Below are positions 5,624 through 11,186 of a stretch of DNA of 30,724 nucleotides, piece after piece. The DNA is from a virus. Its lineage: Duplodnaviria > Caudoviricetes. Under the pieces are notes generated by a model that was not told the origin of the DNA, made no database searches, and saw only the letters and a program-made list of their open reading frames with translations. Position numbers and translations under genes: made by a program. The stretch covers positions 1-30,724 of IMG/VR virus record IMGVR_UViG_3300011339_000196; one strand, 5' to 3'. Position 1 is the stretch's first letter. Every line of letters starts with the position of its first letter.

Positions 5624-5669
5624 GATGTTTTCCTAAAAAGACCTCTACGTTGTGTTGAGGATTGACGCT

Positions 5670-5697
5670 ATTGTATAGCTAGCTAAACCAGCGTCAA
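5670..5697 (-). promoter_or_regulatory. Leftward sigma70 promoter with operator O1
   Basis: Minus strand TTGACG-16-TACAAT; GTATAGC-TA-GCTAAAC palindrome at 5673-5688; flanking inverted repeat TTGACGCT (5662-5669)/AGCGTCAA (5690-5697). Confidence 0.8.
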
Positions 5698-5752
5698 GCC
5701 TTTTCTGGACTATTTTTATCTTTTTTTCTAGGTACTTTCCCTATGTTCATGT

Positions 5753-5771
5753 GTTAAGCCTGCTATACAAT
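5753..5771 (+). promoter_or_regulatory. Rightward promoter -10 with operator O2
   Basis: GTTAAGC-CT-GCTATAC (5753-5768) overlapping TACAAT (5766-5771); no good -35. Confidence 0.65.
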
Positions 5772-5777
5772 GCTGCG

Positions 5778-5939
5778 ATGCAACCTGATCTAGACACAAT
5801 CATTGCGAGAGCTGGCAGCAAGACCGCACTTGCCAAGCTGCTGGGAGTGACCAAGGCCGCGATCAGTCACTGGAAGGTCATCCCTGAGAAGCGCATTTGG
5901 CAGCTGAAAGTCTTGCGACCAGGGTGGTTTGCAGAGTAA
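5778..5939 (+). CDS. cro: Cro/YdaS-like HTH regulator (53 aa)
   Basis: AGSKTALAKLLGVTKAAISHW HTH followed by IP..R; first gene of rightward operon; ATG at 5778 preferred over track start. Confidence 0.85.
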   Translation: MQPDLDTIIARAGSKTALAKLLGVTKAAISHWKVIPEKRIWQLKVLRPGWFAE

Positions 5940-5942
5940 AAT
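5913..5942 (+). promoter_or_regulatory. Candidate sigma70 promoter inside the cro 3' end
   Basis: TTGCGA-18-TAAAAT, placing +1 at the start of the structured element. Confidence 0.5.
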
Positions 5943-5944
5943 TC

Positions 5945-6000
5945 GGGCATGGCTACCCTTAGCGGGGGAAAAGGCGATTCGTTACCGCCCTGCCAGACCC
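5945..6000 (+). ncRNA. C4-antisense-like structured RNA (three-way junction)
   Basis: Outer stem GGCA/TGCC; hairpins CCC-TTAGC-GGG and GGCG-ATTCGTTAC-CGCC; loops complementary to 6008-6013 and 6026-6032. Confidence 0.6.
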
Positions 6001-6038
6001 ACCTTCAGTAACGGCTGACCTAGAACGTAAGGTTGTCA

Positions 6039-6806
6039 ATGCACTACTACAGTTTCCACATCGGGGACTACAAGTCCCACACCCATCACTTGACGCTGAT
6101 GGAAGACCTGGCCTTCAGGCGACTTCTTGATCACTACTATCTGCACCAGGCGCCGATAAAGCAACGCGACATTGCCCGTCAGATTGGGATGCGCGATCAG
6201 GAGCAGGACGTTCTTACCGTTCTCAATGAGTTCTTTGTCAGCACGGAAGATGGGTTCATCAATCCGAGAGCAGACAAAGAAATAGCCGCCTATTGTTTGA
6301 TGGCAGAGGCTGGAAAACGAGGTGCTGACAAGCGATGGAAGAAGGGAGGGGATAGCCCCCCTATAGCCACCCCATTGCCACCCTTAACACCCCCTAATAG
6401 CAACCATGAACCAGTAACCATTAACCATGAACCATTATTAATACCAGTAGCTAAAGCTACTTTGTCCTCAGCGGGGCTGATGACTTGTCCACAAGATCAG
6501 ATTTTGAAACTTTGGGCAAAGCACTTGCCACACCTGGCGCAGCCGCGAAGCTGGGAGGGTACGCGCAGAGCAACCACCAAACAGCGATGGAACCAGGCCA
6601 GCAGGCCAAGCGCATACAGCCCCGAGGGTTATCAGACAGAGGCTGCAGGCATCAAGTGGTGGGATAGCTTTTTCAACTACATTGCCAGAAACACCAGCTT
6701 GGCAAACGGTTTTGAGTCTGAGGGCAGAACGTGGCGACCAGACTTGGAATGGGTTTTGAACGCCCGTAATTTTCAACGCATCATTGACGGAAAGTACACA
6801 AAATGA
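6039..6806 (+). CDS. Replication initiator, DUF1376/YdaU-type N-terminus (lambda O analogue)
   Basis: MHYYSFHIGDY..T.HL..ED.AFRRLLD.YY N-terminus; C-terminal W..DLEWVL..NF..IIDGKY; internal repeats. Confidence 0.85.
   Translation: MHYYSFHIGDYKSHTHHLTLMEDLAFRRLLDHYYLHQAPIKQRDIARQIGMRDQEQDVLTVLNEFFVSTEDGFINPRADKEIAAYCLMAEAGKRGADKRWKKGGDSPPIATPLPPLTPPNSNHEPVTINHEPLLIPVAKATLSSAGLMTCPQDQILKLWAKHLPHLAQPRSWEGTRRATTKQRWNQASRPSAYSPEGYQTEAAGIKWWDSFFNYIARNTSLANGFESEGRTWRPDLEWVLNARNFQRIIDGKYTK
6352..6461 (+). repeat. Putative replication origin (iterons within initiator gene)
   Basis: Four 11-mers (ATAGCCCCCCT, ATAGCCACCCC, ATTGCCACCCT, TAACACCCCCT), five 7-mers AACCA(TG/GT/TT) at 6402-6436, palindrome AGTAGCT-AA-AGCTACT at 6446-6461. 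Confidence 0.7.
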
Positions 6807-7057
6807 GTTTTGCACCACCAGAATCAAAAAGCAAAGACGATGGCCCTAGCCTGCTGTGCAGCGTCAACGGATGCGGCAACCTGTGGAGCGTTCGAATGGA
6901 CGGGCATATGCCTAAGTGCTCTTTCCACCAGTGGGGCGCAGCCAAGCCAAAGACGGAAAGCACATCGACTTACAAGCAATGGGCAGATCGCCAGCCGCTG
7001 ACGAAACCTGTTGCCGATTGGTATAAACAACCTGACCAGCAAAAGGAGGAATGGTGA
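6803..7057 (+). CDS. Small putative Zn-binding protein
   Basis: CxxxGC...CxxH pattern; ATGA overlap with initiator. Confidence 0.7.
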   Translation: MSFAPPESKSKDDGPSLLCSVNGCGNLWSVRMDGHMPKCSFHQWGAAKPKTESTSTYKQWADRQPLTKPVADWYKQPDQQKEEW

Positions 7058-7857
7058 ATGAGCTGGCTCTTTTCGCAGGCGCTGGTGGAGGAATACTCGG
7101 TGGACACCTCCTTGGATGGCGAACCGTCTGCGCCGTTGAGTGGGAACCCTACCCAGCAAGCGTACTGTGCGCCAGACAAAATGACGGCCTTCTCCCGCCT
7201 TTCCCGATTTGGGATGACGTACAAACCTTTGACGGCAAGCCGTGGCGAGGAATTGTTGACGTTGTATCTGGCGGGTTTCCATGTCAAGACATCTCAGCCG
7301 CAGGGGGGGGGGCTGGAATTGACGGAGAGCGCAGCGGGATGTGGCGAGAAATGGCGCGCATCATTCACGAAGTACGACCACGATACGTCTTTGTGGAAAA
7401 CTCACCAATGCTCACTTCTAGGGGACTTGGAACCGTTCTTGGAGACTTGGCCTCAATCGGGTTTGATGCGCGGTGGGGAGTGCTGGGAGCAGCAGACGTT
7501 GGCGCACCACACCAAAGGGACAGAATCTGGATTTTCGCAAATAACATTTCCAACACCGACTGCGAGTCATATGCCCAGCGAGGGGTCGATCATGCAGTAT
7601 CGGAAACTAGTGGACATGGGGATTTTGACAAAGACAGAAGCGGAGAAAATGTTGGAAGCATCATTGAATCCACCGAGAATGAAACCTTGGAAACCGAAAT
7701 TAGAGCAACCATTGGAAACAAAGACTGGTGGATATATGAATCCGGCTTTCCAAGAGTGGTTGATGGGGTGGCCGCTAGGGTGGACAGACTTAAAGCCATT
7801 GGAAACGGACAAGTGCCACTCTGTGCCGCAACAGCCTGGCAGCTTCTCAGTAAATAA
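7054..7857 (+). CDS. C5-cytosine DNA methyltransferase, alpha chain (motifs I-VIII and X)
   Basis: LFAGAGG (I), GGFPCQ (IV), VENS (VI), HQRDRIW (VIII), RLKAIGNG (X); start ATG 7051 or GTG 7054. Confidence 0.92.
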   Translation: MNELALFAGAGGGILGGHLLGWRTVCAVEWEPYPASVLCARQNDGLLPPFPIWDDVQTFDGKPWRGIVDVVSGGFPCQDISAAGGGAGIDGERSGMWREMARIIHEVRPRYVFVENSPMLTSRGLGTVLGDLASIGFDARWGVLGAADVGAPHQRDRIWIFANNISNTDCESYAQRGVDHAVSETSGHGDFDKDRSGENVGSIIESTENETLETEIRATIGNKDWWIYESGFPRVVDGVAARVDRLKAIGNGQVPLCAATAWQLLSK

Positions 7858-7876
7858 TGGTGAAATATGCCTCTAG
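7058..7876 (+). CDS. Overlapping +1-frame methyltransferase beta chain (motif IX, probable TRD)
   Basis: 272-aa ORF overlapping almost all of the alpha gene; FPTPTAS and MNPAFQEWLMGWPLGWT; GGAGG 8 nt upstream. Confidence 0.75.
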   Translation: MSWLFSQALVEEYSVDTSLDGEPSAPLSGNPTQQAYCAPDKMTAFSRLSRFGMTYKPLTASRGEELLTLYLAGFHVKTSQPQGGGLELTESAAGCGEKWRASFTKYDHDTSLWKTHQCSLLGDLEPFLETWPQSGLMRGGECWEQQTLAHHTKGTESGFSQITFPTPTASHMPSEGSIMQYRKLVDMGILTKTEAEKMLEASLNPPRMKPWKPKLEQPLETKTGGYMNPAFQEWLMGWPLGWTDLKPLETDKCHSVPQQPGSFSVNNGEICL

Positions 7877-10173: not shown

Positions 10174-10536
10174 ATGAACATTGACGACATTGCAGAGTTC
10201 ATTGCCCAGCTGTTCCACAGCAGCACGGTGACGCATCTACTCCACTTGAGTACCGACAGCTACAGCAAGCACAAGGCGCTAGGCAAGTATTACCCGCAGA
10301 TCGTTGAACTGACCGACAAGTTTGCTGAAAACTTCCAGGGCAAGTACGAGAAGATTAAAAAATACCCGGAAGAATTCCACAGCGCGACTGACCCAATTGC
10401 TTATCTGCAAGGCATCCAGGCGTTTGTAACCGAGGCACGAGTGTCATTGCCAGAAGACACAGAATTGCAAAACATTGTTGATGAAATCGCAGAACTCATT
10501 AACAGTACCCTGTACCGCCTGCGCTTTTTGGAGTAA
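10174..10536 (+). CDS. Ferritin/Dps-like four-helix protein (DUF5856-like)
   Basis: HLLHLST.SYSKHKAL..YY..I.EL.D.FAE..QG and ELQNIVDEI..LI..TLY.L motifs. Confidence 0.75.
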   Translation: MNIDDIAEFIAQLFHSSTVTHLLHLSTDSYSKHKALGKYYPQIVELTDKFAENFQGKYEKIKKYPEEFHSATDPIAYLQGIQAFVTEARVSLPEDTELQNIVDEIAELINSTLYRLRFLE

Positions 10537-10703: not shown

Positions 10704-10936
10704 ATTGTGGATCTTGCAGGATGTTCCAAGACCAGCCCATCATGGGCGTCTGCCGGTTATATCCACAAACGCAAAACAAACAAAGAACTGATTGGTGCGG
10801 TCAATTTGCTGCAATTGAAGACAGAAAAGTTGTAGAAGTGCCTGTTTACGACATAATGACCGACACCATCAAACCGCAAGTTGTTGCCCGAATCAAACGA
10901 AAGTACGAGCGTAAAAATGTTCAAACCTCTGCGTGA
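10700..10936 (+). CDS. Small Cys-rich protein, HiPIP-like pattern
   Basis: CGSCRMF...GVC...DWCGQF (CxxC..C..WC). Confidence 0.65.
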   Translation: MNCGSCRMFQDQPIMGVCRLYPQTQNKQRTDWCGQFAAIEDRKVVEVPVYDIMTDTIKPQVVARIKRKYERKNVQTSA

Positions 10937-11186
10937 CCGTGTTGTTGTCAAACCCCAGGTGAGGCTGTTGAGCGACCTGATTTATGTAGACAACAAGGAA
11001 CCCTTCAACGAAGGCACTATTGTGGCTGTAGGCCCACTGGTGACGGATGTGGCAGTTGGTGACTTCATTAAGTACGGCAACGGCGACTATCTCAACTGGC
11101 CCACCCAGACGGAAGATGGGCAGGATTACCAAATCATTCAAGAAGCTGACATTTGTGCAGTAGTGGAGTATGAAGATGGCGAATAA
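10917..11186 (+). CDS. groES: GroES-like co-chaperonin
   Basis: MFKPLRDRVVVKP, GTIVAVGP, VAVGD, YQIIQEADI.AVVE. Confidence 0.88.
   Translation: MFKPLRDRVVVKPQVRLLSDLIYVDNKEPFNEGTIVAVGPLVTDVAVGDFIKYGNGDYLNWPTQTEDGQDYQIIQEADICAVVEYEDGE

Follow-up and report, generated by a model that had tools for sequence, protein, structure and literature searches.

How is the replication initiator controlled in a phage with no visible CI repressor? The question arises from a 30.7-kb phage record (IMGVR_UViG_3300011339_000196, 93% complete by CheckV), all 30,724 nucleotides of which were analysed as a single stretch, referred to here as the window. The portal, head and ejection genes of the phage are P22-like, and its early region has a lambdoid layout, with a leftward Erf/exonuclease operon, then a Cro-like gene, then a gene for a DUF1376 protein. 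A blastn search against annotated phages returned a single 35-nucleotide match and no characterised phage. The two genes that flank the locus are:

Positions 5778 to 5939, plus strand: Cro-like gene (Pfam P22_Cro, E=4e-12)
Positions 6039 to 6806, plus strand: DUF1376 protein gene, probable lambda-O-like replication initiator (Pfam DUF1376, E=2e-19)

Because the C-terminal part of the DUF1376 protein matched PHROG families of primosomal and replication-initiation (O-like) proteins (E=3e-11 and 2e-7), we treat its gene as that of a probable initiator, a label taken from the PHROG matches only; searches of the protein against NCBIfam and PDB gave no match. The record, which may be incomplete, contained no match to Peptidase_S24, integrase or HTH_3, and no CI was detectable in it. 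Nor did we find lysogeny genes in the record, and classical immunity is therefore without a setting here. Across 38 cro loci the first ORF divergent from cro encodes a small variable protein, and none of the 34 distinct ones carried a repressor domain (two are amidoligases), so that the absence of a visible CI, already remarked on in the initial annotation, is valid for the whole group. The region between cro and this hypervariable small ORF (5624–5777) is AT-rich and has the character of a divergent-promoter region, with the start of the first leftward ORF lying mostly 140–170 nucleotides from cro in the 38 related loci. Further along the window, two same-strand ORFs (7051–7857 and 7058–7876, plus strand) overlap almost fully in different frames, one of them encoding a C5 cytosine methylase (Pfam, E=6e-31), the other having 272 amino acids and matching PHROG 1008 (E=4e-22); the ORFs at 10174–10536 and 10881–11186 (plus strand) match a starvation-inducible regulator family and a GroES-like co-chaperonin.

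The leader between cro and the DUF1376 gene had initially been described as a C4-like cloverleaf RNA. Scanning the window with Rfam models instead identified 5946–6014 as an int-alpA RNA (RF02996), scoring 37.7 bits where the cut-off is 35.8 and matching model positions 1–71 of 71, which was the sole match above cut-off across the whole window. Between 5600 and 6200, nothing besides int-alpA appeared at E<=10, including C4, c4-2, c4-a1b1 and IsrK, whereas a control scan of phage P4 (7000–10500) matched C4 (74.9 bits), isrK (60.8 bits) and c4-a1b1 and gave no int-alpA match. When we extended the scan to 20 homologue loci picked for diversity, 19 matched int-alpA at E<=0.21, 9 of them exceeding the cut-off, and C4-clan models had no match in any of the 20. 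The cloverleaf is real, and it belongs to int-alpA (RF02996) and not to C4. The int-alpA motif, which we take to come from the Weinberg 2017 survey, is typed in Rfam as Gene; sRNA. Its name implies an int/alpA context; here cro lies upstream and DUF1376 downstream, and the record has no integrase. Gene context is not part of the RF02996 score, and the int/alpA expectation is our reading of the family name. The parts of the fold are:

Positions 5945 to 6000, plus strand: int-alpA cloverleaf (Rfam RF02996)
Positions 5951 to 5953 with 5992 to 5994, plus strand: P1 core, GGC with GCC (Rfam model register)
Positions 5945 to 5947 with 5998 to 6000, plus strand: lower P1 (variable), GGG with CCC
Between the helices, plus strand: junction strands UA, GAAAA and CU
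Positions 5956 to 5967, plus strand: P2 hairpin with loop UAGC at 5960 to 5963, the predicted kissing (dimerisation) loop (3 of 4 pairs doubly changed)
Positions 5973 to 5989, plus strand: P3 hairpin with loop 2, AUUCGUUAC, at 5977 to 5985, the variable address loop (covariation)

Among 17 near relatives, 3 of the 4 pairs of P2 and 2 of the 4 pairs of P3 showed compensatory double changes, giving the three-way junction with covarying P2 and P3 that is characteristic of int-alpA. The invariance of the junction letters is no evidence, because these letters served as the anchors in our search for homologues, and folding of single sequences gave z values of −0.3 to +1.5, no better than shuffles. 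All the letters quoted in the initial annotation are present where it had placed them, and the three-way junction that it drew stands in its P2 and P3 arms; its outer helix, GGCA with TGCC, gives way to the GGC/GCC core listed above.

Homologues were drawn from 58 loci with a DUF1376 protein, 80 with Cro, 120 viral-contig loci that matched the junction pattern and 120 bacterial-genome loci that matched a stricter version of it. Membership was decided from the junction letters and the pairing of the stems alone, blind to loop sequence and downstream DNA, which left 105 distinct viral and 65 genomic members; a few false members remain in these sets, and the signals are weakened accordingly. A second genome pattern returned mostly false matches in coding regions, and its 29 filtered hits stand outside the statistics, with 5 real-looking members used only in the promoter and downstream-ORF counts. 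The int-alpA members range from Planctomycetes and Acidobacteria to Proteobacteria and Firmicutes.

The loop of P3 is complementary to the message that follows it, at two sites:

Positions 6008 to 6014, plus strand: T1, the loop-2 target nearer to the cloverleaf, GUAACG and one further G-U pair; predicted to serve as decoy or as first binding site (covariation)
Positions 6024 to 6027, plus strand: T2, the loop-2 target farther from the cloverleaf, AACG, immediately upstream of the Shine-Dalgarno sequence (covariation)
Positions 6028 to 6033, plus strand: Shine-Dalgarno (SD) sequence UAAGGU (sequence)

Loop 2 (CGTTAC, 5980–5985) is the reverse complement of GTAACG (6008–6013), as had been noted before, and taken by itself this sequence would yield a loop-2 match of at least 6 nucleotides in shuffled downstream sequence with P=0.05. 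The complementarity was borne out by covariation, in the 17 near relatives as well as in both large sets. In the near relatives, pairing of loop 2 with T1 was kept in 95.8% of cells, and 4 of its 7 pairs had changed on both sides; pairing with T2 was kept in 81.8%, with double changes in 15 cells (0 of 500 shuffles). For 60 distinct phage loops, the longest Watson-Crick match between loop 2 and the region 0–55 nucleotides downstream was 5.75 nucleotides for cognate combinations versus 3.91, and the second-best site likewise favoured the cognate loop (4.50 nucleotides versus 3.23 for the loops of other members), so that the permutation sum was 10.25 versus 7.19±0.19. The same cognate signal was flat in coding and upstream controls, including the region 15–70 nucleotides upstream (3.93 versus 3.82, p=0.34), and it appeared again in an independent set of 55 distinct bacterial-genome loops (5.29 versus 3.91 and 4.51 versus 3.26; p=1e-4 for both sites). 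Covariation of loop 2 with two tandem downstream sites is therefore strongly supported, as exemplified by the loop/T1/T2 sets CGUUAC/GUAACG/AACG, CUUCAC/GUGAAG/GAAG and CAUCAC/GUGAUG/UGAUG. The hexamer GTAACG itself occurs 15 times on either strand of the window versus 8.2 expected, a count reached by 1 of 100 shuffles; 13 of these are further sites besides those described above.

The positions of the two sites were as regular as their pairing. Among 77 loops having both, T1 started 10–17 nucleotides after the CUGCC junction in 74, and the period from T1 to T2 was mostly 11–15 nucleotides (mode 12; 14 in this phage). Because T2 ended mostly 5–12 nucleotides upstream of the ATG in these loops, it overlaps or abuts the SD. 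The earlier claim that a cloverleaf loop base-pairs where translation of the probable initiator begins is thus supported for loop 2, through the T2 site beside the SD. The heptamer CGTAAGG (6026–6032), which had been proposed as a single target of the other loop, does contain the SD and lies 6 nucleotides before the ATG at 6039; its CG (6026–6027), however, belongs to T2, which had been overlooked. That the gene downstream is regulated by loop-2 pairing, by whatever route, is very probable and is common to all of the models considered here.

Part of this regular geometry would also be expected if loop 2 acted purely in cis, forming a pseudoknot with T1 (on) or with T2 (off), with folding kinetics, the ribosome or a protein setting the balance and loop 1 making some other contact. 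In addition to the conserved junction-to-T1 distance, the T1 pairing was flush with the 3′ end of loop 2 in 76 of 90 cases, as in an H-type pseudoknot, and there is a precedent in IncI1/IncB plasmids, for which PMC8053102 describes a pseudoknot required for repZ translation. Such a switch provides no reason for the frequent changes of address among close relatives, each needing three coordinated substitutions, and it leaves unexplained a palindromic loop 1 with 14 different cores (described below). A purely cis switch is the chief competitor of the reading that we favour, although we regard it as rather unlikely.

The relative strengths of the two sites bear on the default state of the leader. 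T1 was stronger than T2 in 47 of 90 cases and weaker in 36 (p=0.016), a small difference; in this phage T2 forms 4 base pairs (−2.7 kcal/mol, versus −6.8 for T1). T2 also sits in the loop of a weak hairpin (6017–6020 with 6031–6034), for which shuffling gave weak support as an SD-hiding structure at 6017–6034 (17–26 of 500 shuffles). With the lower P1 fully formed (median 9 base pairs), the linker to T1 had a median length of 6 nucleotides and was 0–3 nucleotides long in 15 of 91 members; for loop 2 to capture T1 in cis the helix may therefore have to fray, or else T1 may serve for pairing in trans. If P1 stays formed, T2 is reached more easily in cis than T1. This would favour a scheme in which loop 2 normally occludes T2 and the SD, and translation is turned on when a trans partner RNA, or dimer formation, diverts the loop to T1. 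An arrangement of this kind is known from IsrK of Gifsy-1, which silences its own mRNA in cis and activates in trans (PMC4825925), and it would suit the 36 of 90 cases with the stronger site at T2. Nevertheless, T2 is weak in this phage, no match to the IsrK model was found, and for the nucleases, integrases and initiators that lie downstream a brake would seem more economical, so we judge IsrK-like activation improbable.

Both loops of C4 RNA pair with targets, and the initial annotation had accordingly assigned a target to loop 1 as well, so that loop 2 would bind GTAACG while loop 1 opened and paired with CGTAAGG over the SD. In this sequence alone, a loop-1 match of at least 5 nucleotides arises in shuffled downstream sequence with P=0.15. 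Within the 17 near relatives the loop-1 pairing was kept in 78.8% of cells versus 73.8% when shuffled (2 of 500), with a covariation score equalled in 8 of 500 shuffles, and loops reading TTAGC were accompanied by TAAGR in 19 of 32 members versus 20 of 138 for other loops. However, pair-counting measures robust to relatedness were not significant (30 and 59 of 500), 13 TTAGC members lacked TAAGR and 20 TAAGR members lacked TTAGC, and the co-occurrence was largely that of one clade. The SD is retained also where loop 1 is not complementary to it. Furthermore, neither large set showed any enrichment for cognate downstream matches of loop 1 or of the whole P2 (p=0.87 for the phage set; p=0.34 and 0.61 for the genomic set), and the pairing would require P2 to melt, yet P2 covaries, with variants such as GGGUAGCUCCC occurring in relatives. 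Downstream covariation thus belongs to loop 2, at two sites, and not to loop 1, for which no family-wide signal of SD pairing exists. We consider the two-loop scheme highly improbable, although loop 1 may keep, as a weak residue visible in the alignments, a local auxiliary contact with the SD in the nearest clade.

What loop 1 does show is complementarity to itself. Among 54 distinct loop-1 sequences of at least 5 nucleotides, 43 held a Watson-Crick palindrome of 4–6 nucleotides, versus 20.3±3.2 after shuffling, and the enrichment held in the viral and genomic sets separately (25 of 30 and 20 of 27); loop 2 had none (10 of 108 versus 20.3). As many as 14 of the 16 possible 4-nucleotide palindromic cores occurred, including compensatory pairs such as UAGCUA/UAAUUA, so that at the level of the family a self-complementary loop is kept by compensatory change, as in a kissing loop. 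In 30 of 34 simple cases the palindrome was shifted 3′ of the loop centre, again as in kissing loops, and the tetraloops included GACG, UAGC, GGCC, AGCG and GGCA. Palindromic hexamers (HIV-1 DIS) and GACG tetraloops (MuLV) drive the dimerisation of retroviral RNAs (PMC5874298), and these loop types fill P2 across the int-alpA family; the retroviral elements are unrelated in sequence and purpose, and dimerisation here is predicted only. In this phage loop 1 (UAGC/UAGCG, a class with 32 of 170 members) has a palindromic core of 2 base pairs, the central GC, so that dimerisation is least secure in the very phage studied here. Two other readings of the palindrome were rejected: a 4-nucleotide palindrome cannot fold on itself to extend a stem within the molecule, and a DNA operator or methylation site does not fit an off-centre position in a hairpin and 14 different forms.

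The candidate promoter of the leader is the following:

Positions 5913 to 5918 and 5937 to 5942, plus strand: predicted sigma-70 promoter, −35 TTGCGA and −10 TAAAAT separated by 18 nucleotides (9 of 12 consensus matches)

This promoter, proposed from the outset, has a −10 box that overlaps the stop codon of the Cro-like gene and would start an RNA at about 5947–5950. Promoter-like sites were found at chance level by themselves (2 versus 2.3 expected in shuffles). The position of the −10 box, by contrast with that background, is conserved: of 95 distinct phage members, 74 had a TAnnnT ending 8–16 nucleotides ahead of the junction, versus 8 in a control window, and the same spacing was seen in 26 of 70 genomic members versus 10 in the control. 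The −35 element is weakly supported, with at least 4 of 6 matches in only 34 of the 95 phage members. A consensus scan predicted no minus-strand promoter reading into the leader. With the −10 box conserved in this way, a promoter belonging to the int-alpA cassette itself is likely, and the cassette probably travels as a unit, given that different genes lie upstream of it and different initiators downstream. Metatranscriptome data speak neither for nor against a short RNA: in metatranscriptome X1 the summed depth of contigs, which cannot show ends, was ~290–480 over 5940–6000 versus 10 beside it, and because 6 of the 11 contigs continued into unlike sequence this peak is explained by related phages that share the core. 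Metatranscriptomes X3, X4 and X5 had nothing on the narrow leader stretch.

The 3′ side of the cloverleaf raises the possibility of attenuation, in which loop–target pairing would set stopping at a pyrimidine or U tract, or exposure to Rho, with any effect on translation secondary. At least 5 U residues fell within 10 nucleotides after the junction in 53 of 88 phage members, giving a U-rich tract after P1, and the P4 CI RNA terminates transcription by pairing with seqA and seqC (PMC4825925). In this phage, the pyrimidine tract before T1 is C-rich and not U-rich, so intrinsic termination is doubtful, and the consensus scan found no terminator-like site on the plus strand. Moreover, the tract precedes T1 as well as T2, and T2 follows the position of the SD, observations that make attenuation, to our minds, quite improbable.

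The reading that we favour, with a rough probability of 45%, is that the int-alpA leader brakes translation in a concentration-dependent manner, a second copy of the RNA docking through loop 1 and covering T2. On a lone transcript, T1, being closer and slightly stronger, would occupy loop 2; T2 and the SD would then stay open, and the initiator would be made on entry into a naive cell; translation of the lone transcript would follow from T1 holding its own loop 2. Cloverleaf RNAs without targets, whose synthesis had ended at the pyrimidine tract ahead of T1 or which had been trimmed back to it, would then accumulate, kiss transcripts via loop 1 and bring their spare loop 2 onto T2, thereby blocking the ribosome. 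A second RNA would also explain the presence of two sites, because one loop cannot pair with both at once. Replication control or immunity, the roles first suggested for the cloverleaf RNA, may then take the form of copy-number, establishment or exclusion control, which would act between elements of the same address because both loops are sequence-specific. The parts of this scheme with direct support are the fold, family membership, the covariation of loop 2 with T1 and T2, the family-wide loop-1 palindrome and the −10 box. Against the brake stand the weak palindrome and weak T2 of this phage, together with the short linker to T1, and the fixed distance from junction to T1 fits a purely cis pseudoknot equally well. 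As a reading of sequence, the dimer mechanism is plausible.

A bolder generalisation, which we hold only tentatively, is that int-alpA RNAs do throughout the bacteria, and without protein, what a dimeric repressor does on a direct-repeat operator: a palindromic kissing dimer would clamp two tandem sites in the ribosome-binding region, and palindrome class plus address would form a two-part code by which CI-less phages and other mobile elements count copies and exclude elements of the same code, the controlled gene here being the replication initiator. If the dimer model were true, it would represent a translational repressor made of RNA only that counts its own copies, for which nature already supplies a library of orthogonal addresses and thus a ready-made regulator kit, and it would explain how CI-less phages of lambdoid layout limit or time replication and might exclude their kin. 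The two-site covariation defines experiments even under the cis model, and an orphan Rfam family gains a mechanism that can be tested.

Several features of the leader recall known RNAs. Like C4 and the P4 CI RNA, it is a cloverleaf from a phage with a variable loop that pairs with sites farther along the same operon, and the P4 CI RNA also holds down replication genes (PMC4825925). It differs in having a single address loop for its two tandem targets, whereas two loops are used by C4, in lacking an upstream target within 15–70 nucleotides, and in starting at its own predicted promoter and not being cut from a precursor. As with IsrK (RF01394), the leader is the 5′ part of an mRNA, and the short form of IsrK is also a trans regulator of that mRNA (PMC4825925); IsrK pairs over ~30 nucleotides and activates, whereas the contacts of this leader span 4–7 base pairs and are duplicated. 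Pairing of a leader loop with its own message is common to C4/CI, IsrK and the int-alpA leader (PMC4825925 and PMC8198154). The control of repZ in IncI1/IncB plasmids is likewise exerted on an initiator at the RNA level, via loop pairing near the ribosome-binding site (PMC8053102), with the difference that its Inc RNA has no parallel here in a predicted opposite-strand promoter over the leader; the regulator would be a same-strand copy. With int-alpA itself the leader shares the three-way junction and a full-length match above cut-off. The RF02996 model already reaches over T1, which is printed as unpaired, and its printed structure has neither the two-site pairing nor the palindromic loop. 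The family and its fold are thus already catalogued, and the two-site pairing and palindromic loop 1 were found in no paper, in a search that covered the main text of PMC5737381, the survey that probably described the motif first; an earlier mention of the pairing may exist. Within that same scope, the main text of PMC5737381 made no mention of the motif, no functional paper on int-alpA appeared (only a table listing or use as a gene name), and nothing in the literature was pertinent to the proposed pairing and dimer mechanism.

The neighbourhood of the cassette varies widely. Among viral members found by pattern alone, 25 of 59 preceded DUF1376-type starts (counted by eye). Other downstream ORFs numbered 114, many of them incomplete, and of the 74 that were scanned 23 had Pfam matches, including 8 to HNH/NUMOD, 4 to integrase, 2 to HTH_36 and 1 to an AntA antirepressor, so that the genes following int-alpA members comprise initiators, integrases, nucleases and an antirepressor. 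At one locus (L197) an int-alpA member (51.8 bits) lies directly upstream of an AntA/KilAC antirepressor, the gene class controlled by C4 and IsrK. Even among 15 phages with at least 86% identical Cro, the leaders carried four loop-2 addresses (4, 6, 1 and 2 loci) or were of a different kind (2), a turnover among close relatives that is as expected of a specificity determinant. A single Chloroflexota MAG contained two copies (L310 and L338) that differ in both the loop-1 palindrome and loop 2, and this difference, a single case, matches what orthogonal addresses would predict.

Nine loci with similar Cro (L066, L069, L086, L087, L101, L113, L130, L132 and L135) had a different structured leader in the slot between cro and the replication gene. 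In a scan of 20 loci this alternative leader had no Rfam match at cut-off, with L113 giving chance hits only. It lies ~10–170 nucleotides after the cro match and has a TTGGCGG...CCGCCAA stem, the long loop of which is complementary to a strand downstream, after which comes a run of 7–9 T. From its letters, it looks like an uncatalogued RNA of the attenuator or antisense type that is interchangeable with int-alpA.
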